This document shows, piece after piece, positions 10,362 to 63,313 of a DNA stretch of 64,000 nucleotides (its first letter is position 1; the number at the start of each line of letters is the position of its first letter). The notes beneath the pieces are model-generated. The model made no database searches. It saw only the letters and a list, made by a program, of their open reading frames with translations, and had not been told where the DNA came from. A program made the translations under genes and the position numbers. Location of the stretch: NCBI GenBank assembly GCA_964589765.1, contig CAZPUM010000001.1:29118-93117 (forward strand). The letters are read 5' to 3'. This DNA comes from an uncultured Methanosarcinales archaeon. GTDB taxonomy: Archaea; Nanobdellota; Nanobdellia; Woesearchaeales; UBA525.

Positions 10362-10787
10362 CTATCTTCCCGAACTACCGAACCCGCCATCTCCTCGAAC
10401 GGTATCATCGAGTTCATCCACATCCAGAATCTCGGCAGTATGGACTGGCTGGACCAGAAGCTGAGCAATTCTGTCACCTTTTCTTACTTCGTAAGGTTCA
10501 TCATGAGTGTTTAGAAGAACAATCTTCAGCTCACCACGGTAAGTGTTGTCAAGGACGCCCGCCATGGTCTTGATACCGTGTTTTGCCGCCATCCCCGACC
10601 TGTCCCAAACCAAACCAACAGTTCCTTCGGGAATGGCAAGTGCGATGGCGGTCGAGACTATGCGTCGCTCTCCCGGCTGTAGAATAACCGTCTCGTACGC
10701 ATGGATATCCATTCCCGCATCGCCAGACCTGCCGTACTTCGGCAACTGTGCATCTGAGTGTAACCTTTTAATTTTCACCTTAGTCAT
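10362..10787 (-). CDS. dut: dUTP diphosphatase.
   Basis: dUTPase motifs GDAGMD, RSG and the C-terminal GGFGSSG. Confidence 0.85.
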   Translation of the reverse strand: MTKVKIKRLHSDAQLPKYGRSGDAGMDIHAYETVILQPGERRIVSTAIALAIPEGTVGLVWDRSGMAAKHGIKTMAGVLDNTYRGELKIVLLNTHDEPYEVRKGDRIAQLLVQPVHTAEILDVDELDDTVRGDGGFGSSGR

Positions 10788-11236
10788 TTTCTTTTCCTCA
10801 TAACATCTACAATCGCTGCTTTGAAATCTTCTGGATCTTTGAAATCCATGTATACAGACGCAAACCTGATGTATGCTATCTTATCAAGGCGTTTTAGCCT
10901 CTTCATCATCAGTTCACCTATAACCTTACTGGAAACCTCTCCTGAGCGCCTCTTTTTAATCTGGTCTTCAACATAATCCAGAGCTGATTCTATCTTGGTA
11001 ACACTTATTGGACGTTTTTCACATGCTCTCAAAATACCATTTCTGAGTTTTTCACGATTAAACTGCTCTCGTCTGCCATCTCTTTTTGCAACAAGAACTG
11101 ATGTGGCTTCAACCCTTTCATAAGTAGTGAACCTCTTTTTACACTTCTTACACTCACGCCTTCTTCTTAGAGCATCTTCAGAATTTCTACTTTCTAGAAC
11201 TTTGCAATCGTCGTTTTTACAGAAAGGACATCTCAT
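10784..11236 (-). CDS. nrdR: Transcriptional repressor NrdR (zinc ribbon plus ATP-cone).
   Basis: MRCPFCKN...CKKCKKRF zinc ribbon followed by an ATP-cone; 4-bp overlap with dut. Confidence 0.8.
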   Translation of the reverse strand: MRCPFCKNDDCKVLESRNSEDALRRRRECKKCKKRFTTYERVEATSVLVAKRDGRREQFNREKLRNGILRACEKRPISVTKIESALDYVEDQIKKRRSGEVSSKVIGELMMKRLKRLDKIAYIRFASVYMDFKDPEDFKAAIVDVMRKRK

Positions 11237-19119: not shown

Positions 19120-19361
19120 TATTCCCCTCTTTTTGGCGTGCCTTCAGAATATTCATCGAGTTGTTTCAGTGCTTTCTCAACACCATCACTCTTATCTTCT
19201 AGTTGAATCTCAGGAGTCAGTTTTGATATCTCTGGAAGATTCTTTTTTGGCAAAACATCTTCAGGGAAGTCCTCTGCCAGAGCATCTATTTCATTCGCCT
19301 CTTGTTCTGATACATCTCGTCCGTCCGCAGTCATGTTGTTGTATTTTTTCATTTGAAACAA
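19119..19361 (-). CDS. Small acidic hypothetical protein.
   Basis: An 80-aa ORF lying between the regulator and sufB. Confidence 0.25.
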   Translation of the reverse strand: MFQMKKYNNMTADGRDVSEQEANEIDALAEDFPEDVLPKKNLPEISKLTPEIQLEDKSDGVEKALKQLDEYSEGTPKRGE

Positions 19362-19708
19362 ACATCACACCCTTTGGGTATGCCTCCTTCCAATTTTTCG
19401 TGAAGTTTACAGATAAAGCGCTGTTTTTTTGCCAGAGCAATTATTTTTTGCGTCTCCTTAATCATCATGTTAGTGTCAGTGATTTTTGGCGCCGCATTTT
19501 CTATAGCTTTTATCAGCTCTTTTGGAAATTTAACAGTTTTCCCCCTTTTTTCTTTGAGGTACTGGCTTACAGCAGACTCTGTAACCCCCAGAAGCTCTGA
19601 AATCTTCTTCTGCGACTTGCCTGAAGACTTCATGGCTATCGCCAGTTCCCTTCTTATCGTCGGGAGGATATAATGGACTTCCACTTCCTGTGGTTGCAAC
19701 AGCTTCAT
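19349..19708 (-). CDS. HTH-type transcriptional regulator with a C-terminal Cys cluster.
   Basis: HTH (ISELLGVTESAVSQYL); C-terminal CKLH...CDVC; first gene of the suf operon. Confidence 0.55.
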   Translation of the reverse strand: MKLLQPQEVEVHYILPTIRRELAIAMKSSGKSQKKISELLGVTESAVSQYLKEKRGKTVKFPKELIKAIENAAPKITDTNMMIKETQKIIALAKKQRFICKLHEKLEGGIPKGCDVCFK

Positions 19709-19748: not shown

Positions 19749-20723
19749 CTAATAAGGCCTTCTTGTTCCATCTTCGTCCACATGGAAGTCCTCTAGAAAG
19801 TCTTCTACCGTTATAGGGTACGGTTTTTCGTAGAAGTTATGGTCGTACCTGCCCAGAATCTTGAAATCGAAATGTGAAATACCCTGTGCCCAATCCCTGA
19901 GTCGTTCTCTCACATTATCGTTATGGTCTGAATCTAGTATCTCAACACCGTTTTTGTTGACCTTGACAAAATAGGCCCATCCTCTAGCGCCCCCATCGTA
20001 GTCTTGAAACAGTTTGTAACAGTTTCCATCCGCTGAGACTCTGTCATTTCTGGACAACATCCTGATAATATCAGGTTCAGGATTCTCATAGTTAATATCT
20101 TGGGGCCTATGATGGTTACAAAGAACAACTGTTTTCCTGTTGATATAGATTCCCGCGCCTTCCAGTAACCAAGAATAAACGTTGGCCTCCTGTTTTAGGA
20201 AGAAAATGTTTGGCCCAGAACCCCCAACTAACATATCAAAGATTGAGCCCATATTTAGTTGGAATCTGAAACTATCTGCGACATGAATTTTACCACCCAA
20301 ACATTTTGCCCAGCACTCTGCGTCCTCACCGACAAAGCATCTGTAAATATCCCCTCTTCTGATAAGAGCCTCTGATACTTCGTCCACTTTTTGTGGTCGC
20401 TTTGATTTGGCCTTTTTGTATTCCTCGACACGCTCAGCGGGACTCTTACTTTGAAGCCTTTCTGTTTTTGAAGTAGTCAGTAACTCTTTATGGACAACCA
20501 TTGTTTCAACAGTCCCTTCCAGGTCCTTGTCGAAGTTTGGCCTGTATGTCCTGGCATCAATAACTCTATTATCTTTCAAAGAAAATTCAGAAAGCTCTAT
20601 TTCTACAGGAAAACCCGATTCTGGCTCTTCTGCGAACACAACATCTCCATCCGCCGTGGCGTCGAGAACTGCTCTTTCGAGCCTCCTGGCTGAATCCATC
20701 TTCACGTATATTTTCCTGCCCAT
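19749..20723 (-). CDS. Hypothetical protein.
   Basis: About 325 aa with an internal start 25-30 nt downstream of a TATA-like catataaata; no recognised family. Confidence 0.4.
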   Translation of the reverse strand: MGRKIYVKMDSARRLERAVLDATADGDVVFAEEPESGFPVEIELSEFSLKDNRVIDARTYRPNFDKDLEGTVETMVVHKELLTTSKTERLQSKSPAERVEEYKKAKSKRPQKVDEVSEALIRRGDIYRCFVGEDAECWAKCLGGKIHVADSFRFQLNMGSIFDMLVGGSGPNIFFLKQEANVYSWLLEGAGIYINRKTVVLCNHHRPQDINYENPEPDIIRMLSRNDRVSADGNCYKLFQDYDGGARGWAYFVKVNKNGVEILDSDHNDNVRERLRDWAQGISHFDFKILGRYDHNFYEKPYPITVEDFLEDFHVDEDGTRRPY

Positions 20724-20810
20724 GCCATAATAGTAAAAAAGCACTCATATAAATATTCTGTAACAAGAAAATTACATAATAGTTAATAAGGGCAATCCCC
20801 GCACAATATT

Positions 20811-21224
20811 ATGGAACTACTAAAACCCCCTGGTAATTATTGGTACTCGCGGGTCAGATATATAACTGAACCACCAAATGGACTTAAGTTATTGATTGCT
20901 AGTAGAAAAATTTTAGGACATAAGAGAAATAACTTTGAAAGCACCGATGTTTTCTTGTCCGTCATGGGCAATCCTGTCAGAGATTATCGACCAAACAATG
21001 GGCGCTTTGAAGAGATATACGGCATTTATGTTTACAAAGGCGACACAATAGTTACAGCAGGAGATCTTCGATTCAGAGAACTTTTGTATGAAGGACACGA
21101 ATTTTTCTCACACAAAAAAGTTCCCTTAGAAGAAAGAATTGATGCGTTTGTTGCAGAGTTAGTTGCAATGGAAGCAATAAAAGAAAAAGATGTCCGTGTT
21201 GGAAAGATAAAGTGGGGGTTATGA
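20811..21224 (+). CDS. Hypothetical protein.
   Basis: A 137-aa ORF with a TATA-like gttaataa about 25 nt upstream. Confidence 0.35.
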   Translation: MELLKPPGNYWYSRVRYITEPPNGLKLLIASRKILGHKRNNFESTDVFLSVMGNPVRDYRPNNGRFEEIYGIYVYKGDTIVTAGDLRFRELLYEGHEFFSHKKVPLEERIDAFVAELVAMEAIKEKDVRVGKIKWGL

Positions 21225-21311: not shown

Positions 21312-21335
21312 TAGAATAAAAAAAAAGAAAAGTGG
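21312..21335 (-). terminator. Oligo-T archaeal terminator after the five-gene cluster.
   Basis: A(9)GAAAAG on the plus strand equals a T-rich run on the minus strand immediately after the stop of the 21340..22317 gene. Confidence 0.4.
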
Positions 21336-21339
21336 AGAA

Positions 21340-22317
21340 TTAATTCTCCTGAGGAACAGCCTGAATAATGATTGGCTGTTCGATGAACTCTCCGTACCTG
21401 TACTCAAGCTTGATGTCCATTGCGTCCGTATAGACCCTTGTTGCCGGACTACCACCAATTACTGTACATGTTACGGTCTGCGGGCTTCCTGCAAACAGAG
21501 TCACAATACCTGAGCCACCGCCACCAAGTCGTCCACATGATACTGTAGCACTCGGGTCCTGCATACTGACGTCCACATCGACCTTGAACTTATTACTGTT
21601 AGTAAAGCTGGGGTCACAGTTTTCATCAGGTTGCCTGCCGTAGAACTCTCCTGGACCGATGTGGTCTAGAACGAAGTTCACCATGATTCTGTTATCGGCC
21701 ATTGGACTCTGAGATACACCTGTGACATGAACAGGACCGCCTGAATTGTGGAAAGGCCTGTCTCCAACAAGAGTACATATGCTGTTGTCCTGAACGTTCT
21801 CAACAATCTCGTCTTTGAAGCATAGTTGTGTTGTGACATCAGTATGATAGTCGTAACATGCTGTTGCTCTGATTGTTATCAGGTCGTTACCCTGTCTTCT
21901 TCCCTGATAGTTCAGGTTGTCGAAAACAAAGTTTGTCACAAGCCCTCCAATTATTGTGCCATCGAAATTTTTCTGAGCACCACGGACCGGTTCCTGTAAT
22001 GTTTGTTGCATGTCCGCCTCTGTGATTCCGAAGTTTGACGGGTTGATACCCTCCAAACGCATCGTCATGTACGGGTTTTCAGTTCCCGGACCGATGTCGG
22101 CTTCACCGACGTTCTCAACAACTATATTGACGCTGAACGGGTAGTTTCCTCCGTCGTAGACTGCCGGAGGAGGAGCGCCATCCTGTAAGTAAAGCATAAC
22201 TCCAAGGTTTCCTCCAATGAAAGGGTCTACAACAGGGCCTCCCTGACCGCCTCCACCACAACCCGTTAGGATTAGTAGCGAAAGGACTACTGGTATCAAG
22301 AGATTCCTTGTTTTCAT
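21340..22317 (-). CDS. Secreted lipoprotein (lipobox LTGC), paralog family member A.
   Basis: Signal peptide plus Cys lipobox and a G-rich linker. Carries the shared module ...TACYDYHTDVTTQLCFKD...GGPVHVTGV.... Confidence 0.6.
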   Translation of the reverse strand: MKTRNLLIPVVLSLLILTGCGGGGQGGPVVDPFIGGNLGVMLYLQDGAPPPAVYDGGNYPFSVNIVVENVGEADIGPGTENPYMTMRLEGINPSNFGITEADMQQTLQEPVRGAQKNFDGTIIGGLVTNFVFDNLNYQGRRQGNDLITIRATACYDYHTDVTTQLCFKDEIVENVQDNSICTLVGDRPFHNSGGPVHVTGVSQSPMADNRIMVNFVLDHIGPGEFYGRQPDENCDPSFTNSNKFKVDVDVSMQDPSATVSCGRLGGGGSGIVTLFAGSPQTVTCTVIGGSPATRVYTDAMDIKLEYRYGEFIEQPIIIQAVPQEN

Positions 22318-22326
22318 TTTTCCACC

Positions 22327-23646
22327 TTATACTATTCTTTTAATTTGTACTTGTCTCTGTTGTGTCTGACTGTAACCATACCACAACTCTACAACAAGTG
22401 GTGCTTGGTATGCCGACTTAAGGTTGGCAAACTGAAGCGGATATGAACATGTTGTGGTTCCCCTTTCTGTCTTGGGATCCAATCTTATGACTTCAGGACT
22501 ACACTCGATTCCACCACGACCGCCACGGCCTGAAAGACCCAGTGTTCCAACTCTGACGTCACCAAGATAAACAATATTCTTGTGTTCAGGAGTAACTCTT
22601 CCAGGATAGTAGGGACTACACCTTTCAAGGTGACCTGCATCCCAGACCGTTCCGGAACCTACATTCTGAACATTAATTCTGAAAATAATCTTTTGCGGTG
22701 TGTTTTCCTGCTCAATGCTTGTGATTGCTACAGGAGCGCCGTTTCCTCCGTTCCATGTTTTACTCTGAGGATAGCAAACCTTTCTTATGTCAGAGTAAGG
22801 GTCAGGGTCTATACAGACAATCGGGTCTGCGTATGTTGTGTACTGGTAGCACGTTGTCAGCAAGAAACTCTGAACTGTCTGGTCAAGACCAGGAGGCCAG
22901 TTCACAATCTTTCCATTGTAAAGCAGATAATCTGTTTCGCCTCCTGGAAAATTATAGTCGTCCGCCGCCAGGAGGAATTCACGGCCGTTATGAATTCTGT
23001 AGTCAATCCCCGCGAGAAGCGCGATGAAAAGACGGCCGTTCTGATAATATTCAACGTTTCCAAGAATATTGTCTATGTTGAATGAGAACACTGAGCCAGA
23101 GGGGCTATCTGTATAGTCTATACCAATATCGAACTTTGTGGGGTCCCACCAGGATGAACCATGCCTACCAGAGATTGCGTTGATTAAATCAGCCAAACTG
23201 TCTAACCTGACTCTGGCTGTGTCCCCCCCGTAGTTTACCTCTAGGCCGTCACACCTGAATATACCTCCGTAATCTCCAAATCCTATGTTTCCGAATGTGA
23301 ACCCGCATGCACCTATGCCTCCTTCAGTTATACTGATTTCGTCAAAGACAAGTAGACTTGGGTCGAACCCGCTAACAAAAATTCCTCCTCTAGTATACGA
23401 TGCTCCTTTGTTTTGTAGGGCAACTCCGAAAGAGAACTCATTGTTTGAGTTATCCTGGGGACCATAATAGTACAGTCTCTGAGGAAGTCCTTCAAAATAT
23501 GATTCAACTCCTTCCTTACCTTTATAGTAATTTGCGTACTCGTTAATTCTATTATTATCGTTACCGCCTGAACCACACGCCGTCACTAAGAACATAGTTG
23601 AGACTAGCATCAGAAACAACACCAACCTGTTCTTCGTCATCACCAC
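22327..23646 (-). CDS. Secreted lipoprotein (lipobox VTAC), paralog family member B.
   Basis: Signal peptide plus lipobox. Shared module ...TTCYQYTTYADPIVCIDPDPYSD...NGAPVAITSIEQEN. Confidence 0.6.
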   Translation of the reverse strand: MVMTKNRLVLFLMLVSTMFLVTACGSGGNDNNRINEYANYYKGKEGVESYFEGLPQRLYYYGPQDNSNNEFSFGVALQNKGASYTRGGIFVSGFDPSLLVFDEISITEGGIGACGFTFGNIGFGDYGGIFRCDGLEVNYGGDTARVRLDSLADLINAISGRHGSSWWDPTKFDIGIDYTDSPSGSVFSFNIDNILGNVEYYQNGRLFIALLAGIDYRIHNGREFLLAADDYNFPGGETDYLLYNGKIVNWPPGLDQTVQSFLLTTCYQYTTYADPIVCIDPDPYSDIRKVCYPQSKTWNGGNGAPVAITSIEQENTPQKIIFRINVQNVGSGTVWDAGHLERCSPYYPGRVTPEHKNIVYLGDVRVGTLGLSGRGGRGGIECSPEVIRLDPKTERGTTTCSYPLQFANLKSAYQAPLVVELWYGYSQTQQRQVQIKRIV

Positions 23647-23688
23647 GTCGATACACTCCCGTTCTGAATTTTTAAATGTTCCGTCGAT

Positions 23689-25476
23689 TTAGCAAGAGAT
23701 AAAACCAAAGTAATCACCAACAACCAAATCTTGTCTTGAAACAGTTCGTTTTGCGACTGTATTTCCAACATTGCCTCCTACTATCTCCACTTTGTCTCCC
23801 TCTATACTAGTAATAATGTCGCAATGACTTGTAACGCCCGGCGCATAAGGATCAGTGTAACTTATAGGACAGCTGGAGCCTCTACAATTGCATACAATGT
23901 CACCAACTTTAATCTTTGATACCTCTTCAACTCTAAGAGTTCTACAACTACCTTCACCGCCCCTTACTTTTGTAAAGTACTCCCAGTGGTTACAACTTCT
24001 AGGGAAATTAACACCTGATTTACCCATTACATATGATATGTATGCTGCAGACCAAGGAGTTCCTCCACAAGTCCCAGAGCAACCTCCCGCTCTAAAGTAA
24101 TCTGCGACCCTGCCACTCACAGCAGAATCACACTCAGACCTTCCTCCAAAGTAATTATACTCATCAAGAGCTATTTGGCCTATTCGATTTGTTGAAACTG
24201 TTGTTTCCCTTGTTTTATCGCAACAGTAGGTTCCAGGCCTGCAAAGACCGACAATACACTTGCCTGAGCTGGCAAGCGCCAGACACGCATCCCTGCTACA
24301 AGAGCAACTGAACTCTGGATTTATTCTGTCCTGTATCTCTGAAGGCGCTTTATCAGGGTTCTCAGCGTAGTACCTACACTCTGTGTAAACAGTTCCATAA
24401 TCGTCAACAACAGGCTCCTCTCCTTGGTACATGACGCCTGTTTCTTTACCATAAGGTTCTAGGTCATTGGGAGTTATGTCAGGTCTTTCAGTTCCAGGTA
24501 TTCTGTTAACTTCCAGCGTTTTTGTCGTTGCGGTCTTGTACATGTAAGTTAGGTTAACAATCAGAACAGACTGAAAGTTCTGCTTACTGGCATAGATAGG
24601 GTCATTAAGATTATTGCTTGGAACAGTGCACCTAGCTACACCCTCGCCATCAAACATTTTGATTAGTTCACCCGGCTGACACTCAAGTTTGGTGCCCAAT
24701 AACCAAGCGTCCAGCTTAACTGTGTTTATCTGTTCAGAGGGGATTCCCTTAAGGAAACATGCTGTGTCCATAGGAAGTGATGCAGGACCAATAAGTCTGC
24801 CATCCCCAACATCTCTAAAATGAATTGTAAAATGTGGCCTTATTGATTCAGTGCCTAGCAGATTATCAACAACAGGGAAACTCTGAACCTCAATATCGGT
24901 TACTGTTATTGGAGCGCCTTGACCATTCGAGAAAGACACGTCTTGCTGTACACAAGGTTGTTCTCTTTCGTTTGCGTAGTACACATTTGTATCAATACAA
25001 ACATCAGATGTTGCAAGAGTGTTATACTTGTAACAAATACTTGCAGCAAGGTCTGTTTCAGGTTTTTGACGAGTTCCATAAACGGGTTTTACGAAAAATG
25101 AATAGAATGCAGGGACTGAGAATATCTTTTTCTCACCATCAGGCCATCCTAAAGAACGCCCCCTTATCAGTTCGCTCTCAGGATCATGTATGGTGGGCTC
25201 GTACTGCTGGACCTCTACAGGAATGTTAATGTACAACGGGTCTCCTGAGAATGTTATTAGCAAGTCATCATAATGAACGTTTGCCGCACCCATATTGTGA
25301 ACGCCTAATTTTACAGGGAAAGGTGTGTTTTCGTACACGGCATCAGGTGGTGCGTTTGATGCAAACTCAGGCACTAAACCGTTTTGTCCTTCGTAAGGGT
25401 TGTAGTTCTCCATACTTCCCCCCCTACACGAAGTGAGCATAAGAACCATTACTAACATGAGAATCCAGAATCTCAT
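23689..25476 (-). CDS. Secreted lipoprotein (lipobox LTSC), paralog member C, with a Cys-rich linker and a C-terminal NlpC/P60-CHAP-like cysteine peptidase domain.
   Basis: Shared module ...SICYKYNTLATSDVCIDTN...QGAPITVTDIEVQ. C-terminal GGCSG...AAYISYVMGKSGVNFPRS (Cys motif), GDIV, SHCDIITSIEGDKVEIVGGNVGNTV (His motif). Confidence 0.6.
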   Translation of the reverse strand: MRFWILMLVMVLMLTSCRGGSMENYNPYEGQNGLVPEFASNAPPDAVYENTPFPVKLGVHNMGAANVHYDDLLITFSGDPLYINIPVEVQQYEPTIHDPESELIRGRSLGWPDGEKKIFSVPAFYSFFVKPVYGTRQKPETDLAASICYKYNTLATSDVCIDTNVYYANEREQPCVQQDVSFSNGQGAPITVTDIEVQSFPVVDNLLGTESIRPHFTIHFRDVGDGRLIGPASLPMDTACFLKGIPSEQINTVKLDAWLLGTKLECQPGELIKMFDGEGVARCTVPSNNLNDPIYASKQNFQSVLIVNLTYMYKTATTKTLEVNRIPGTERPDITPNDLEPYGKETGVMYQGEEPVVDDYGTVYTECRYYAENPDKAPSEIQDRINPEFSCSCSRDACLALASSGKCIVGLCRPGTYCCDKTRETTVSTNRIGQIALDEYNYFGGRSECDSAVSGRVADYFRAGGCSGTCGGTPWSAAYISYVMGKSGVNFPRSCNHWEYFTKVRGGEGSCRTLRVEEVSKIKVGDIVCNCRGSSCPISYTDPYAPGVTSHCDIITSIEGDKVEIVGGNVGNTVAKRTVSRQDLVVGDYFGFISC

Positions 25477-27272
25477 CTGACCATCACCTGTGTTGCAGCC
25501 TCAATTGTGTAACTGTAATAAGCCACAGCTATAATGCTTCTCTCTGTTTTGTCTGCCTCGCTGATTAATGGGTACAAATCAGCACCTTCACGCACACCAA
25601 GTTTACAAGTTATGCTTGTATAAGTGGTAATTGGACCTGCATTCTTGTTTTCAAAGACATAGTTAGTATAATCTGGTTCGAATGGGTCAGGCTCCTGTCT
25701 ACACTCGTTAGGATTGTTCTCGCACCTATCACATTCGTAAAGTTCGAACGGTTCAGGCACCTTGAGTTCTATTTTGTTAACTTGATTTAGTTGACCGCTC
25801 CCCCACCCAGGGTCTAGAGTTAAACCGATTCTTGTTCCTGCGGGGATTGGGTTTTCCTCGGCCGGATTAATCCTGATTGGCTGAGGAGTGCCTCCCATTC
25901 CTATCTTTAATGGTCCCGCCGTGAAAATGGCGGTTGGATTAGGATCGATATCCAGAACATCTCTTACATCCAGGCCTTGCCTGGCAAGGTTTCTTGCCCT
26001 TTCATCATCTACAAAAGAGAATGTTATGTATGCCCAGGTCTGGAAAGGGAATGTTGCGAAAGATTTGATTCTGTAAGTTCCCGTTTCATCTATAGCACCA
26101 AATTTACACTCATATACCCCTGCAGTACCAAGAACAATATCGAGTATTTCGGGATCGACACTTGCCTCTTCAGTAATGGCTCGCCTATCAATCACACAAG
26201 ACGGAACAACCTTCAAAGAGTCTTCGTCATCTATGAATGTTTTTGCGTAGATTGTTCCGTAAACTGATAAGGGCATGTCTGTCGTGATAGTTCTATCAAT
26301 AGGCCTTAAATCTTCAAACTTAACACCTATGTCTGCCTCAGCATTATCTTCTACCCGCCCAGTATAATAAGCACCAGGGTTCAGGGTTTCATTTATTGTT
26401 CGGCCTATGCCTGAACCTATGTTTGTGAAAGCCTCGACAAAAGTATCAAACATATTTATTGCCGAGCCAGAAACATCCAACCCTCCAACCCCTACGATGG
26501 GCATGGTTGACAATGTCGGGAAGAAAATCAGACCAAAGAATAACACGATGAAGGATATCATCAATAATATTTTGTATATTCTGAATATCTTTGCTGCAGT
26601 TTCACTTGCCTGAGACAGTCTTTGTAACATGTAGATTGGCCAAACAGGAACAATGACTGCCAAGAAAAACAAAGCTCCGTGAATATTCTCGCTCCATGTG
26701 AACGCCTCTGCAACAGCAGGCATACAGTACATTACCGCACCTGCCAAAGAAACAACAAAAATTGACTTCTTACTCGTGTCACCAATTGCAACAATATAGG
26801 TTAGTCCTAAAGCGGACATCACAGCAAAGTATGTTATGAATGAGGCTGTTGAAGCACCAAATCTGAAAACAAAAATTACAAACAAGTGTATAAGTATTGA
26901 AATTATGAAAAAAAGAGTCGGGCCTCCTGTAAGAGCGTCAGCTGTCACGTTACCCCCTACGTTCAGTAGTTTTTTACCACCTGCCTTTCCCACTGCCCCC
27001 GCACCTTTTGCCAGACCTGAAATAGCATCTTTCAGAGTTGAACGCGCCTCGCTTATCCCTTTTTCAGCCTTTAAGTCATCTGAATGAGAATCACCTGATG
27101 GAACAGAAGGAGTGGCAATTGACGAAGAACCTTCTCCAGTTCCTCCGTCCGTTTTTACATCAATATCTAGCTCCACTTTGTTTCCATCTTTACTTACTTC
27201 AGAACCAACAGGACCTTTTAGCTTAGCCTCAACTTCCTCTCTTAGCTTCTCTTCTTCGTCAGCCATGCTCAC
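25473..27272 (-). CDS. Polytopic membrane protein (about 5-6 TM helices) with an acidic/K-rich cytoplasmic N-terminus and an extracytoplasmic C-terminal domain of about 330 aa.
   Basis: Hydrophobic helices span aa about 125-330. The C-terminal domain carries a related Cys-containing motif (YECDRCENNPNECRQEPDPFEPDY...GPITTYTSITC). Overlaps flanking genes by 4 bp. Confidence 0.55.
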   Translation of the reverse strand: MSMADEEEKLREEVEAKLKGPVGSEVSKDGNKVELDIDVKTDGGTGEGSSSIATPSVPSGDSHSDDLKAEKGISEARSTLKDAISGLAKGAGAVGKAGGKKLLNVGGNVTADALTGGPTLFFIISILIHLFVIFVFRFGASTASFITYFAVMSALGLTYIVAIGDTSKKSIFVVSLAGAVMYCMPAVAEAFTWSENIHGALFFLAVIVPVWPIYMLQRLSQASETAAKIFRIYKILLMISFIVLFFGLIFFPTLSTMPIVGVGGLDVSGSAINMFDTFVEAFTNIGSGIGRTINETLNPGAYYTGRVEDNAEADIGVKFEDLRPIDRTITTDMPLSVYGTIYAKTFIDDEDSLKVVPSCVIDRRAITEEASVDPEILDIVLGTAGVYECKFGAIDETGTYRIKSFATFPFQTWAYITFSFVDDERARNLARQGLDVRDVLDIDPNPTAIFTAGPLKIGMGGTPQPIRINPAEENPIPAGTRIGLTLDPGWGSGQLNQVNKIELKVPEPFELYECDRCENNPNECRQEPDPFEPDYTNYVFENKNAGPITTYTSITCKLGVREGADLYPLISEADKTERSIIAVAYYSYTIEAATQVMVR

Positions 27273-27281
27273 CTCAAACCA

Positions 27282-28553
27282 CTATACTATCTCGAGCTTG
27301 AGCTCGGCCACATCCAGGCGGTCAACGTGCGGCGCAATCTGAATAGTGTTCGGGCCAGGATTTATTATTCCTGGGTCAATGACCGCCTGCCATACATAAT
27401 CCTGCGTGCTGAAACTCTGAACAAATCCGTTCACCACAACCTCGCCTGATTTTACATTTCGATAATCTGTGAACGTCATGGTAAGAACCAATTGACCATA
27501 GCCAAGGTCGATTCCCTCATACATTTCCATTGGCAGATTGAAGTAATACACAGGGTAATCAGACTGTCGCATCTCTAAGGTCAACTTGATGTTGTCAACG
27601 ACATACTGTCCTCCCTGGACAGCAGCCATGAAAAGTCTGTTTTCTCCAACCCTCAGATACTCTTTTGGAACATCTGTCTTGAACCGGACTCCACAGTCCA
27701 CAAGACCTGTGTAGAGTATGTTTGGTACTGTGAATGTGTTATTGTCAGAATCCCTGACAAGCCTGTCGTTTAAATGAACGACCAACCTGCCTGCGTTGCT
27801 CGGGTCACAGTCAGGAATAAATTCAAGCTGAGCTGCTCTGAAAGCACCTATCTCTTCCTCAGAAACACTGAAAGTTTGTTCACTCACACTTCCTGACTGG
27901 TCAATAACGTCCGCACTTATCTGAATGTTTCTTAGCTTATACGCATTTGGTTGCCAGAATGCAAGACCTGTATCGTCTGTCTGGAGAGTTATAACATTCT
28001 CTCCTTCAACAAAGTAGTCTGTTGGCAACTGAATTGGTGGCGGGCTTGGTTCTCTAATGGGCCTTTCGTAAATCTGGTTTCCATTGATAAGAATCCTTAA
28101 AGGTCCTGAACCCGCCTCTTCTAAACTGAAGCTCAAAAGATAGTTTCCACTCCCCTCTTTTCCCGGAGTGAATGGTATCGACATGTCTTTCTTTGCAAAA
28201 ATACCATTCTTTACAATTCCTGAGTCTATAGATTTCACAACCTGTGTGTTGATTCTTGTGAATATTGTTGAAGTAGGAATATTATGTTCTTGTATCGGAC
28301 TCCTCAGAAATCTCAGAGTCCCCGGGGTCTCTGTAAGTACCAAAACTGGGCCATACTGCGTGAAGCTTCCGCCTCCTGAACCACCTCCCGACCAGGACTG
28401 GCCACCAAACCCCCCATCACCACCAAAAAGCAACTGGTCACGTTCGGCAGGAGGAAGGAATAAGATATAGAGCAGAAGGAAACCTGCTATGATTGCAATC
28501 AAGACAGCTGAGCCCGAAGCAGTCTGTCCCCGTCGAGAGCCTCCACCTAACAT
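27282..28553 (-). CDS. Signal-anchored (single N-terminal TM) surface protein with a Gly-rich linker and repeated beta-rich segments.
   Basis: N-terminal TM AVLIAIIAGFLLLYILFL; GGDGGFGGQSWSGGGSGGGS linker; three xVxxNGxx-type repeats. Confidence 0.5.
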   Translation of the reverse strand: MLGGGSRRGQTASGSAVLIAIIAGFLLLYILFLPPAERDQLLFGGDGGFGGQSWSGGGSGGGSFTQYGPVLVLTETPGTLRFLRSPIQEHNIPTSTIFTRINTQVVKSIDSGIVKNGIFAKKDMSIPFTPGKEGSGNYLLSFSLEEAGSGPLRILINGNQIYERPIREPSPPPIQLPTDYFVEGENVITLQTDDTGLAFWQPNAYKLRNIQISADVIDQSGSVSEQTFSVSEEEIGAFRAAQLEFIPDCDPSNAGRLVVHLNDRLVRDSDNNTFTVPNILYTGLVDCGVRFKTDVPKEYLRVGENRLFMAAVQGGQYVVDNIKLTLEMRQSDYPVYYFNLPMEMYEGIDLGYGQLVLTMTFTDYRNVKSGEVVVNGFVQSFSTQDYVWQAVIDPGIINPGPNTIQIAPHVDRLDVAELKLEIV

Positions 28554-28609
28554 ATTTAAAACCCCGACGAAACAGCATATATAAAAGTTTCCGTTGTTTT
28601 CCTCGAGAG

Positions 28610-29632
28610 ATGCGAATCACCCATAAGGACCTAAAACAGGGAACCATTGCGGTTCAAACACAAACTCCCGACGATTTATGGTATTTGACTACCATAGTTA
28701 ACGAGGGAGATATAGTGCTGGGTAGCTCTGAGTACAAATTCAAACTAGGCGGTTCAGATGCCAAGCAGAAGATTGTGAAAAAAAAGGTCACAGTTGAGCT
28801 GGAAGTGGAGAAAGTCGAACTTTCAGGAAATATAACTCGGATTTCAGGAGTTGTGACAGGAGGTTCAGAGGATGTTCCCAGGGGAAGCCACCACGGAATT
28901 GACATTGAGGAAGGTTCCAGAATAACAATCAAAAAGGAAAGATGGCTGGATTTCCAGCTCGAAAAACTAAAAGAGGCCTGTAACTCTGGCGGTTCTGGTA
29001 CAGTACTCTGTCTTTTTGACAGAGAGTTTGCCAGAATTCTCAGACTAAAGCCTAACGGGGTGGATGTTTTATCGGAGATAAAGGGCGATGTTCCCAAGAA
29101 AGGTGTTGATGAAGAGAAACAACACAGGTTTTACAAGGAGATAGCAGAAAGACTTGAAACAGTTGAGGCCCAGCAAATTCTTGCTGCCAGTCCGGCTTTC
29201 TGGAAACAGTACTTAGAGAAAGAACTTTCCGCTGAGACGAAGAATAAGACCATATTCACTTCAGTCAGCGGAACAGATGATACTGCTGTAAAAGAATTGT
29301 TGAAATCAAAAGAGTTACAGCAGGTTCTACAAAACGAACGTTCTGCCCGTGAAGAGAACATGCTCGAAGATGTTATGTCCGCCTTGGGAAAAGACATGCT
29401 CGTTTACGGCAAGGACGATGTCAAGGCGGTTCTATCAGAGGGTAACTGTCTCGCGCTTTATGTTTCTGAGAATGAGATTGTGAAAGCGCGAGCCGAGAAC
29501 AGGTATCCCTCTCTTGAGGCTATCATGAAAACCGCAGGCGACCTCGATGCAAAGGTCCGTCTGTTCTCAACACGGGAACCTATGGTTAAGATTGACGGGC
29601 TTGGCGGAGTTGTGGTGGTCAAGAGATGGTGA
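28610..29632 (+). CDS. pelA: Pelota (Dom34) ribosome-rescue factor.
   Basis: N-terminus MRITHKDLKQGTIAVQTQTPDDLWYL matches the Pelota signature; eRF1-like three-domain length about 340 aa. Internal ATG chosen 28 nt after a TATA (atatataaaag). Confidence 0.8.
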   Translation: MRITHKDLKQGTIAVQTQTPDDLWYLTTIVNEGDIVLGSSEYKFKLGGSDAKQKIVKKKVTVELEVEKVELSGNITRISGVVTGGSEDVPRGSHHGIDIEEGSRITIKKERWLDFQLEKLKEACNSGGSGTVLCLFDREFARILRLKPNGVDVLSEIKGDVPKKGVDEEKQHRFYKEIAERLETVEAQQILAASPAFWKQYLEKELSAETKNKTIFTSVSGTDDTAVKELLKSKELQQVLQNERSAREENMLEDVMSALGKDMLVYGKDDVKAVLSEGNCLALYVSENEIVKARAENRYPSLEAIMKTAGDLDAKVRLFSTREPMVKIDGLGGVVVVKRW

Positions 29633-39778: not shown

Positions 39779-41443
39779 ATGAAGAAGGGAAGCCCTCCTA
39801 TGCCTGTCTTATTGGTTTTGGCCACGTCTCTCTTAGTTGCGGGCATTCTGACCACTTACACTGCAGGAATCTATGCCTCTACAACGGTGTTTGGAGTGGG
39901 AATTCTACTGTTCTTCGGCATAGCACTTTACAATACAAAGATAGATGCGGGAAAACCCACAGCAATAGTCAGCATAACCGTTGCTGTGGTGTTGGCCATA
40001 ATTATGGCATCAACATTGTTCACAATTGTCCAGACTACCATTCCTGTCTGCGGTGATGGCATTTGCGCACCGTACGAGTGCGACGAGAATTGTGAAGACT
40101 GCACTCCTGACGATTGTCTAAACGGCATATGTCAAAGACCACTTGAGACTTGCGAGAACAGCCCTGACTGTTCTTGTCCGGGCGGAACTATCTGTGTTCC
40201 GGAAAGACCGGGAGTGGACCCTACAGGTTGCTTCTGGATTAAGTGTGGCGACAATTATTGCGACAAAGGAGAGTCCTCAAAAAACTGTTGTTCCGATTGT
40301 AAATGCGAAGCAGGGTATGAATGTAGACAAAATCAATGTTTCTTTTTACCGCCTAAGATGGCTTTCAACACTTTCCTTTTCAGCGATGAAATCGGTGCCA
40401 GCACTTTAGCTGCCAACCCCAACCTGAGAAATGAATCAGGAACCCCCCACCCCTTGGTGGCATTGGATTTGACAAACCAAGGAAGCTTCGCATCAGATGT
40501 TAGAGTCAGATTCAAGCTAGATGAGGTTTTTGAAGAGAGTTTTTCAGTGGGTTCTATGGATAAAGGAGACAACAAAGATGTTTTGTGGTTCCTTGACGAA
40601 ACCCCTCTTTATCTCTCGATTGTAGAAGATATTGATACAAACATAACTGTGACTGTAGAGTACACGACAACTGAAAATATTAGGAACTCTTTCAGCGTTA
40701 ACTATCCAATCAAAATTTTAAACAGAGGCAAACTTGATGATATTGGGGAGCTCGCATACTACGTAACCAAGGATATCAAACCAAATGGTAAAACCATAGA
40801 TATGATTTGGGAAGAATACAGAAAACAACTAGAACTCAGACCTAATGATGGAATTATTCAGTATCCTTTAGAGACTCTTATTTATGGCGGAGGCGACGAT
40901 AAAGACTTAGCCGTTTTCTTTGCCAGCGCTTTTTATGGTGCGGGAAAAATTACCCAGTTTGCCAACACAACTGATGGGATGATGCTTTGGGTAAGGTACA
41001 GAGGTAATTACGAAGTACTTGATACAAGACACGTTGACTTAAATTTTGCTAAGGCGCTTGACTCGCGACCGGAACGTACCACATTGAGCAGTTTCGATGA
41101 GGTTTGGGAAATGCACAGCATAGAACCGACAACATTTGACGCGAGAATGCTTCCTGGAATGAAAATAATCTCCTCATCAGAGGTTAGCCAGGAATGTGAC
41201 TGTGTAAGCTATTGCGGTCAAAAGGTTGAAGCAATCCACAAGATTATCAACCGAGGCTTGGTTAAATCAAAACTCTGCGCCAAATCTACAATAGAACTTA
41301 ACGATGAAATTCTCAACCAAAAAGAATGGTGTTTTTCTGTAAGCCCCGAACATTTAATCTCACTAGAACACCTATGGAAAAGCAACTCAACATGTCAAGA
41401 TGTTGATGTAGAAATCAAAGTGTGGAACGCTACCTTTTCATGA
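39779..41443 (+). CDS. Membrane-anchored (3 N-terminal TM) Cys-rich surface protein with CGDGIC-type repeats and a C-terminal globular domain.
   Basis: Three TM helices. Repeats CGDGICAPYECDENCEDCTPDDC.../...CKCEAGYEC. The C-terminal region has transglutaminase-like spacing (AVFFASAFYGAGKI...MMLWVRY) without an obvious catalytic Cys. Confidence 0.55.
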   Translation: MKKGSPPMPVLLVLATSLLVAGILTTYTAGIYASTTVFGVGILLFFGIALYNTKIDAGKPTAIVSITVAVVLAIIMASTLFTIVQTTIPVCGDGICAPYECDENCEDCTPDDCLNGICQRPLETCENSPDCSCPGGTICVPERPGVDPTGCFWIKCGDNYCDKGESSKNCCSDCKCEAGYECRQNQCFFLPPKMAFNTFLFSDEIGASTLAANPNLRNESGTPHPLVALDLTNQGSFASDVRVRFKLDEVFEESFSVGSMDKGDNKDVLWFLDETPLYLSIVEDIDTNITVTVEYTTTENIRNSFSVNYPIKILNRGKLDDIGELAYYVTKDIKPNGKTIDMIWEEYRKQLELRPNDGIIQYPLETLIYGGGDDKDLAVFFASAFYGAGKITQFANTTDGMMLWVRYRGNYEVLDTRHVDLNFAKALDSRPERTTLSSFDEVWEMHSIEPTTFDARMLPGMKIISSSEVSQECDCVSYCGQKVEAIHKIINRGLVKSKLCAKSTIELNDEILNQKEWCFSVSPEHLISLEHLWKSNSTCQDVDVEIKVWNATFS

Positions 41444-61574: not shown

Positions 61575-62387
61575 GTGGACTGGAAAATAATCTTGTTAAT
61601 CATAGTAGGAATAATTCTGCTCATAGCATTCCTATTCAGAAAACAGATTGGACATTGGTCCTCCGCGCTGGTCCATGACTATGTTTATGACTGGGGTCTT
61701 TCAACACTTGACAACTTAATAGGAGGTTTCGCAGGTCTGGATGTTGGAGACTGGGTTGGAGCTTTTCTTATATTCAGAGGTGAGAAAAAAATTATTGGAA
61801 CCCTGCCTGCATTAATTGTTGCATGGGAGGCCACCAACTTTATTCCACTCAGTTTTATTCCTGTGGTCGGAGAGGGAATTGAAGTTGTAACTAACATTAT
61901 ACCTGCATCGACCATCACAAGGTTTTTAGTCGCAAAATATGGCCCAGCTGAACGAATGGAAGTGCGCTTGATGGAAGAAGGCGCTGTTATGAAACAAGAA
62001 AACATCAATGTCCCTGACTTTGAAGGGGCTCTAAACCATATCAAGGAGTTAATTGACAAGAACAACCCTGTCGAGGCATACGCTATGGAGAAGGCAATTG
62101 ACAAAGCTGTCAGCCAGAAACTCAGAATCAAGATTGACAAACTTGTCAATCAAGTAGACGGTGAAATACAGCAGTTGATTCAACAAGACCCTGAAGGAAC
62201 TGATGACCAGCTCGAGGTTCTGACAAAAGGGATAGAACTGGCCAGAACACACCTTAATGATGCCAAGCTTTTTGAAAAAAAGAAAAATTTCGCCAGCGCA
62301 ATCAAAAAAGCAAAAGAGGCTCAGAGCGTGCTCAGTCAGTCTGTTGACGCTTTCAATGAATCACTGAGCATGGAGAAAGCCGCATGA
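61575..62387 (+). CDS. Hypothetical membrane protein.
   Basis: An N-terminal TM helix plus two or three more hydrophobic segments and a C-terminal coiled coil. A TATA-like tcttataaatc sits about 25 nt upstream. Confidence 0.4.
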   Translation: MDWKIILLIIVGIILLIAFLFRKQIGHWSSALVHDYVYDWGLSTLDNLIGGFAGLDVGDWVGAFLIFRGEKKIIGTLPALIVAWEATNFIPLSFIPVVGEGIEVVTNIIPASTITRFLVAKYGPAERMEVRLMEEGAVMKQENINVPDFEGALNHIKELIDKNNPVEAYAMEKAIDKAVSQKLRIKIDKLVNQVDGEIQQLIQQDPEGTDDQLEVLTKGIELARTHLNDAKLFEKKKNFASAIKKAKEAQSVLSQSVDAFNESLSMEKAA

Positions 62388-63313
62388 AACCTCTGATTTT
62401 ACTAACGATTTTGTTGCTGATAACCTCTTGTACCACAGAGAGTTTGCCCGAGGAGAAAACAATAATTGGACCTAATGATATCAAAATCCAGGAGAGCAGA
62501 AATCTGCAGAAAGGGGTCGCTGGAATCACTCCTAAAAACAATTACAGACCGAGCGACGAAGACTGGAATGATTACTTCTCAATGCTCGGAGAGTATGGCC
62601 CTCTGTGGGGAGTCTATGTTAACATAGAGGACAGCTTACAAGAGGGCATACCTCAACAGGTGCGTCTTGCTTACGAACTGGCAAAAATGCGTCCAGTCAC
62701 ACCTGTTGTTGCTCTGGGTTTCCAGAACGATATAGAAAAAGGATTTTTTGAACTGAACGGTCTTAGGTATCAGGAAACCGTTTTAGCTGTCGCAAAAGAG
62801 TACCACCCCGCCTATCTTGGTCTTGGTATTGATGTTAACAGGATTCCTGACGAAGAGTTTGACAACTACCTTAATTGGTACAAAGATACATACAATGAAG
62901 TGAAAAAAGTCAGTCCCTCCACTAAAATATTTCCAATCATTCAGTACGAACATTTACTTAACAGTCAGGAAGATGACTGGCTAGAGGAACTCGAAATGGA
63001 TGTTTTTGCCATAACCTTGTATCCTTTCCTTGCTTTTGATTCACCCGCTGATATTCCTCGTGACTATCTACCTAATGATGTGCCAATCTTAATCACGGAA
63101 ACTGGCTGGCCATCTAGCGAGGTTGGTCGAGTCCAGCCAGCACAGACTGAATATATTGACTGGCTTTCAACAACACCGACAAATGTTGAAGCTGTTTTGT
63201 GGAGTTTTTCGCACGACCCTATGTTAGGAGATAAAACGTGGGATTCAATCAGCCTAAAGTTCTCTAATGGAACTATGAAACCCGCGTTCAATAAATGGCA
63301 GAGTTTGAATTAA
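62384..63313 (+). CDS. Secreted lipoprotein (lipobox ITSC) with a GH5/GH17-like (beta-glucanase-type) TIM-barrel glycoside hydrolase signature.
   Basis: Signal peptide plus lipobox. Catalytic-nucleophile motif ILITETGWPS typical of GH17/GH5 clan A. Putative acid/base Glu region upstream. Confidence 0.5.
   Translation: MKPLILLTILLLITSCTTESLPEEKTIIGPNDIKIQESRNLQKGVAGITPKNNYRPSDEDWNDYFSMLGEYGPLWGVYVNIEDSLQEGIPQQVRLAYELAKMRPVTPVVALGFQNDIEKGFFELNGLRYQETVLAVAKEYHPAYLGLGIDVNRIPDEEFDNYLNWYKDTYNEVKKVSPSTKIFPIIQYEHLLNSQEDDWLEELEMDVFAITLYPFLAFDSPADIPRDYLPNDVPILITETGWPSSEVGRVQPAQTEYIDWLSTTPTNVEAVLWSFSHDPMLGDKTWDSISLKFSNGTMKPAFNKWQSLN

Follow-up and report, generated by a model that had tools for sequence, protein, structure and literature searches.

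The segment 21340-25476 of the window (the whole 64,000-nucleotide (nt) stretch analysed here, from the woesearchaeal contig CAZPUM010000001.1) consists of exactly three open reading frames (ORFs) on the minus strand, which we name A, B and C. Two further genes of that strand, D and E, adjoin C upstream. As judged from their sequences, A, B and C are paralogs of ancient origin, and their family, which has no name, is found almost only in Woesearchaeota. The genes and the features read from their sequence are the following (aa, amino acids).

21340..22317, minus strand: gene A, 325 aa; lipobox LTGC (Cys20), then a predicted two-beta-sandwich module
22327..23646, minus strand: gene B, 439 aa; lipobox VTAC (Cys24), then the same predicted two-beta-sandwich module as in A
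23689-25476, minus strand: gene C, 595 aa
24487..25476, minus strand: residues 1-330 of C; lipobox LTSC (Cys17), then the same module as in A and B
24202..24486, minus strand: residues ~331-425 of C; linker, Cys-rich in its second half
23740..24066, minus strand: residues 471-579 of C; DUF2272 domain (Pfam PF10030)
25473..27272, minus strand: gene D, 599 aa; membrane protein with an ectodomain
27282..28553, minus strand: gene E, 423 aa; pilin-like N-terminus and an all-extracellular body
28578..28585, minus strand: TTTATATA, candidate archaeal TATA box read from the sequence, 32 nt upstream of the start codon of E
21318..21331, minus strand: TTTTCTTTTTTTTT tract, candidate archaeal oligo-T terminator read from the sequence, 8 nt past the stop codon of A

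The stop codon of D and the start codon of C overlap by 4 nt (ATGA), and the remaining intergenic gaps measure 9, 42 and 9 nt. Because of this tight spacing, together with the candidate TATA box TTTATATA ahead of E and the T-rich tract TTTTCTTTTTTTTT behind A, which is a candidate for the terminator that ends the transcript, the five genes look like one operon, E-D-C-B-A.

The A, B and C family

BLASTP connects A with C (E-value 9e-10 over 225 aa), B with C (5e-13 over 243 aa) and, in two pieces, A with B (3e-4 and 7e-4). Family profiles made from orthologs at other loci, compared with hhalign, align over 304 columns for A-B (1e-21), 301 for A-C (9e-21) and 302 for B-C (1e-38), and these alignments run from the signal peptide through the last strand. 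Likeness of this degree cannot be put down to chance, and it extends well past the Cys motif by which the proteins were first grouped. The first-pass annotation had quoted TACYDYHTDVTTQLCFKD...GGPVHVTGV from A, TTCYQYTTYADPIVCIDPD...NGAPVAITSIE from B, SICYKYNTLATSDVCIDTN...QGAPITVTDIE from C and CDRCENNPNEC from D, all of which are present, and had proposed that three neighbouring surface proteins form a paralogous family, as the BLASTP and profile alignments over ~300 columns now establish. The suspicion that the resemblance might be limited to short motifs is refuted by the extent of these alignments. The motif is real, but it is not the shared unit. What the three proteins have in common is a whole ~300-aa two-domain body plus a lipoprotein signal, of which the motif forms a hairpin and a linker. 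Searched with a hidden Markov model (HMM) of the module, the window yields three copies and no more.

The best conserved subunit is A, whose orthologs reach up to ~70% identity between metagenome-assembled genomes (MAGs). B carries a ~110-aa insertion in domain 1 with an extra conserved Cys pair (114, 132). Internal duplication within A was also considered; hhalign of domain 1 against domain 2 is non-significant (E-value 0.096), the motifs that line up in this alignment being GAPP/GGPV, ENVGE/DHIGPG and CYDY/EYRY.

In a joint alignment of 36 members of the A, B and C families, the lipobox Cys, five of six further Cys, C-Y-x-Y, the P of G-x-P, N-x-G and a C-terminal Y-x-Y are invariant in all 36, while G-x-P has its G in 34. 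The module Cys are residues 154, 166, 181, 234, 261 and 284 of A, 266, 278, 291, 343, 382 and 400 of B, and 148, 160, 175, 240, 266 and 283 of C. The sixth of these Cys (A234 = B343 = C240) does not fall into one column of the joint alignment; in the per-family alignments it is present in 14/14 A, 12/13 B and 9/9 C sequences. Among 213 full-length homologs of the A type, all six module Cys occur in 212 and the full Cys pattern in 200, with 12 others missing only the Cys of the lipobox column. The conserved Cys spacing that had been pointed out at first pass thus holds: these proteins, which have the features of secreted lipoproteins, each contain an even number of invariant Cys, namely six. 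Conserved extracytoplasmic Cys are even in number in all five proteins A-E. The six invariant Cys probably form three disulfides. The sole hint on their pairing is that C154 and C166 of A lie on opposite arms of a hairpin (145-168) in the AlphaFold2 (AF2) model, and pairing by Cys co-loss gave no obtainable signal, the six Cys being practically invariant among homologs.

The proteins A, B and C, and the orthologs of all three, begin with hydrophobic signals that end in a lipobox. When 53 family members were scanned singly, weak matches to lipoprotein-signal models of Pfam appeared. Judging by these N-termini, A, B and C probably sit on the outside of the membrane, anchored by a lipid on the N-terminal Cys.

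The AF2 model of A, made with a 53-sequence family alignment as input, is all-beta with two domains (predicted local distance difference test score (pLDDT) 91, predicted template modelling score (pTM) 0.83). In this model the quoted Cys motif is a long hairpin that closes domain 1, plus the linker into domain 2. The modelled fold is an ordinary pair of immunoglobulin (Ig)-like beta-sandwiches, and the claim that the family is new therefore stands for its sequence and not for its fold. One may ask whether the motif is simply a diverged known Ig-type domain, such as PKD, Big, CARDB or DUF11, in which case there would be no distinct family. The shared fold class would allow this, yet we regard it as very improbable. 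Neither Pfam nor NCBIfam matches the module (in Pfam, nothing at E-value <= 1), sequence searches of the PDB with A, D, E and the DUF2272 domain gave no meaningful relatives, and the 53 members scanned singly show no recurrent domain match and no recurrent Ig-type family, bar the lipoprotein-signal models. Against a library of viral structures the fold of A reaches template modelling scores (TM-scores) of at most 0.23. Two sets of candidates were set aside: a Peptidase_M24 match on A (E-value 0.011) and other one-off Pfam matches, which are below threshold and non-recurrent, and a likeness to fusexin/HAP2, which covers one Ig-like domain only, the three-domain trimeric ectodomain with fusion loops being absent.

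Searched exhaustively with HMMER, 1.84 billion cluster representatives yielded 2,855 members at E-value <= 1e-3 and 786 at <= 1e-30, and the named database relatives are nearly all MAGs of Candidatus Woesearchaeota. With ~2,855 cluster representatives the family is large and therefore deserves a database domain profile. A literature search found no paper describing the A/B/C module or the E-D-C-B-A operon.

Gene order, companion proteins and fused domains

Related loci were collected with 15 closer A-family sequences. At every locus with enough flank the order is again E-D-C-B-A, usually directly beside pelota, and A, B and C each match their own ortholog at their own operon position. The loci are:

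Full E-D-C-B-A, genomes: L001 (identical to L002 and L008), L003, L004, L005, L011, L013, L016, L017
Full E-D-C-B-A, metagenomes: L022, L026, L030
Full E-D-C-B-A: L032
Partial clusters: L018, L029

The three genes are therefore separate orthologous groups in fixed order across Woesearchaeota, and since each matches its own positional ortholog, the triplication is older than the radiation of these lineages. This overturns the suggestion that the domain had been duplicated within the present locus. Extra tandem copies are seen only at L004:6277-11125 (two B-type and two A-type genes) and L026:10001-12114 (two A-type genes in tandem), indicating that the family is still duplicating in some lineages.

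The membrane region of D is helical with 4 hydropathy peaks (residues ~105-270), and 4-6 membrane helices are predicted. It is followed by an ectodomain of ~330 aa with 4 invariant Cys (359, 389, 514, 556), which was modelled as two beta-sandwich domains (9 sequences, pLDDT 74 overall). The model rests on this many sequences because searches for D homologs gave few matches, 8 and 6, the candidate list being crowded by low-complexity or extension words. The membrane part and ectodomain are conserved among D orthologs and the N-terminus is variable. This cytoplasmic N-terminus (residues 1-105 in the window) is charged and of low complexity, and ranges from ~50 to ~340 residues among orthologs. 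No match to D was found among transporter families in Pfam, NCBIfam and the PDB. The first-pass annotation had seen a segment related to the Cys motif in the ectodomain of D. The string CDRCENNPNEC does exist, but D orthologs conserve only its first Cys, everything else in it being limited to the D of the window and its closest relative, and no significant likeness links D with A, B and C. The BLASTP E-value is > 10, the HMM of A, B and C has no match in D, and several hhalign set-ups, with whole proteins and per domain, gave E-values of 0.007-0.23 and probabilities < 6%. Taken together, the observation with which this work began is confirmed and its interpretation is partly supported.

At the N-terminus of all nine E orthologs the pattern [KR]-[GA]-[QA], in the form RGQ, RAQ, KAQ or RGA, stands directly before a hydrophobic helix of ~20 residues, and this N-terminus resembles an archaeal class III (type IV pilin-like) signal. 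No gene for an A24 peptidase, a PilB/PilC-type ATPase or a platform protein was found among the window ORFs scanned. The body of E has 2 invariant Cys and a weak Pfam match of the carbohydrate-binding module type (E-value 3e-4, below the curated cut-off). The E ortholog at L013:2923-4608 (561 aa) contains a ~150-aa insertion, extremely rich in Cys, Asp and Glu, that no other E protein has.

The most telling variation concerns the domains attached to the conserved core. The DUF2272 domain of C matches its Pfam model with an E-value of 7.7e-20 (72 bits vs a cut-off of 27). DUF2272 has a papain-like fold of the NlpC/P60-CHAP-amidase group with Ser at the nucleophile position, and its activity is termed speculative by the classification paper itself (PMC10318531). 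On this ground the domain of C is a putative peptidoglycan peptidase or amidase. At other loci the attached domain differs:

Window and L018: DUF2272 on C
L001, L017 and L022: SLT on C
L005: 3D on C
L016 and L030: SLT on D, with C bare
L003, L004, L011, L013, L026 and L032: no recognisable enzyme domain

Hydrolase fusions thus occur at 8/14 loci and involve three unrelated Pfam families and two different subunits. The SLT-bearing D proteins belong to the two most divergent loci, at L016:4712-7690 (992 aa) and L030:5298-7865 (855 aa), where C is a bare module of 329 and 337 aa. Between module and enzyme, C has a linker with 8 Cys (367-419, ~55 residues) that lacks a Pfam match and is conserved in 8/9 C orthologs, being retained also in those that bear another enzyme domain or none. 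Extracellular murein-like lytic transglycosylase proteins are already known in Woese- and Pacearchaeota, with the bacterial wall as proposed target (Castelle et al. 2021, PMC8204110).

The neighbours of the operon are housekeeping genes of archaeal type: pelota, SufB/D, a cysteine desulfurase-NifU fusion, PheRS, SecY, an EMC3-like protein, PriL and an ERCC4 nuclease. Neither Rfam families nor tRNA genes were detected when the window was scanned for them. At 28493-28610 (plus strand), the pelota ORF as listed has a TTG start that overlaps the opposite-strand start of E. The eRF1_1 domain of pelota begins at residue 40, so the true start is probably near 28610, which would leave a short divergent promoter region common to pelota and the operon. 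On the other side, ORFs of 331 aa (19749-20744, minus strand) and 137 aa (20811-21224, plus strand) lie between A and a conserved helix-turn-helix gene (19349-19708). These two ORFs look like a lineage-specific insertion because they have neither a Pfam match nor a homolog in any syntenic locus. Elsewhere in the window, 10784-11236 (minus strand) encodes an NrdR-type repressor (Zn ribbon and ATP-cone) in an archaeal contig, NrdR being normally a bacterial regulator. Three plus-strand ORFs, 39779-41443 (554 aa), 61575-62387 (270 aa) and 62384-63313 (309 aa), have no Pfam match.

Possible roles of the five proteins

The pattern of fusions, with three peptidoglycan-active families on two subunits, is the main functional clue. 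Because hydrolases are fused to C or D, the most likely job of the cluster is the presentation of a murein hydrolase to a bacterial wall. We lean, though only slightly, towards a surface complex of all five proteins that is anchored to the membrane, has A, B and C as its scaffold and holds a murein hydrolase against the bacterial cell wall. In such a complex A, B and C would be lipid-anchored double-sandwich subunits rather than free-standing adhesins, E would be anchored by its pilin-like N-terminal helix, and D would be a polytopic protein whose ectodomain is likewise a beta-sandwich pair. The five would assemble into one structure with the module of A, B and C as its structural element, and in most lineages C, or D instead, would end in the peptidoglycan-cleaving domain, which on C would be carried by the Cys-rich linker. 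Such a complex may serve for attachment to a bacterial host or for breaching it, or else for feeding on material of the wall. To our knowledge, the archaeon has no murein of its own.

Several points weigh against this reading. As 6/14 loci have no recognisable hydrolase domain, peptidoglycan cleavage cannot be the core function, and the core role must be structural. That A-E associate as a complex is something we infer from their sequences and gene order, and disulfide bonding is likewise deduced from Cys conservation. By sequence, D shows no significant likeness to A, B or C, and its model comes from 9 sequences at an overall pLDDT of 74. The fold neighbours of the modelled A are generic and functionally uninformative. 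Finally, the substrate of the hydrolase could be free wall debris or something other than murein.

The main rival holds that A-E are a housekeeping envelope, a surface-layer (S-layer)-like or wall-scaffold lattice in which the module is a lattice or stalk subunit and the hydrolases are occasional passengers. Each of the genes is found at every locus, with extra copies only at L004 and L026, beside core genes such as pelota and Suf; conservation among the orthologs of A is high, reaching ~70% identity between MAGs, and the cluster persists at the 6/14 loci without a hydrolase domain, all of which would suit such a role. Archaeal S-layer proteins are also commonly chains of Ig-like domains, for which lipid anchoring is possible. 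They are, however, usually fast-evolving and consist of one or two large proteins rather than five modest ones, and the joining of three different wall-cutting domains to two subunits is hard to call an accident. We therefore consider an envelope role possible but on balance doubtful, while noting that it is compatible with the display of a murein hydrolase, as a lattice could display an enzyme too. It has also been considered that the locus harvests nutrients by the logic of the Bacteroidetes Sus system, with the lipoproteins binding wall fragments, the enzyme cutting them and D importing the products. The lipoproteins, the enzyme and a membrane protein are the parts that this logic assigns, but it is a weaker rival because D resembles no transporter: only 4-6 transmembrane helices are predicted, and Pfam, NCBIfam and the PDB give no match to any family of transporters. 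No carbohydrate-binding family was found above threshold, and the loci without an enzyme would be functionless, making a harvesting role quite improbable.

Returning to the presentation of a murein hydrolase, one may speculate further that E-D-C-B-A is an undescribed, Woesearchaeota-specific machine by which a wall-less archaeon docks on a bacterium and locally opens its peptidoglycan. According to this speculation, the lipoproteins A, B and C would form a stalk or ring, and C or D would bear a swappable head of the SLT, 3D or DUF2272 type. We think this version unlikely to be right as a whole; if it were, archaeon-on-bacterium episymbiosis would have its first defined molecular apparatus. Woesearchaeota are abundant and uncultured, and are presumed symbionts whose lifestyle and partners are obscure. 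The gene fusions argue that some of them, at least, deal with bacterial cell walls. The module alone would be one more unnamed Ig-like surface family, and the operon is of more interest than the module itself. Five 'hypothetical proteins' become a defined, clade-wide operon with a six-Cys double-sandwich building block and a recurring bacterial-type wall-cutting appendage, which offers a concrete target for antibodies, cryo-electron tomography and enzyme assays.

Comparison with known systems

A close precedent is the protein family of Castelle et al. 2021 (PMC8204110), from the same clade, in which a secreted archaeal protein likewise bears a wall-cutting domain of bacterial type. Those C and D orthologs that carry SLT may belong or be related to these proteins. 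That report concerns a single family whose proteins are very large (up to 3,000 aa), unlike the module and operon described here, and gives no account of the A/B/C module, of the operon or of the swapping of SLT, 3D and DUF2272 (PMC8204110).

The signals of A, B and C resemble those of bacterial-type lipoproteins (lipobox L-x-[GAS]-C), ending in L-[TAS]-[GAS]-C in 36/36 family members. They differ in that the organism is an archaeon, in which the chemistry and enzymes of lipid attachment are not those of the bacterial Lgt/Lsp pathway. In their Ig-like beta-sandwich fold, A, B and C are similar to CARDB, DUF11 and macroglobulin-type domains, and to PKD and Big. Unlike the CARDB, DUF11 and macroglobulin-type domains, they are a fixed domain pair with six invariant Cys and a lipobox, they are without a sequence match to such Pfam families, and they constitute three orthologous groups, each at a fixed operon position.

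Peptidoglycan hydrolases are also components of trans-envelope machines, such as VirB1 in type IV secretion and PrgK/TraG, with SLT and CHAP domains, in Gram-positive conjugation. These enzymes cut the wall of their own cell, unlike the foreign wall proposed as the target here, the other components of their machines are not homologous to those of the operon, and E-D-C-B-A contains no ATPase or channel protein. What the operon may share with them is the tethering of a wall-cutting domain, of the SLT or the NlpC/P60-CHAP type, to a membrane-anchored multiprotein surface machine, here a proposed one, and, as in VirB1 and PrgK/TraG machines, the kind of enzyme is interchangeable.

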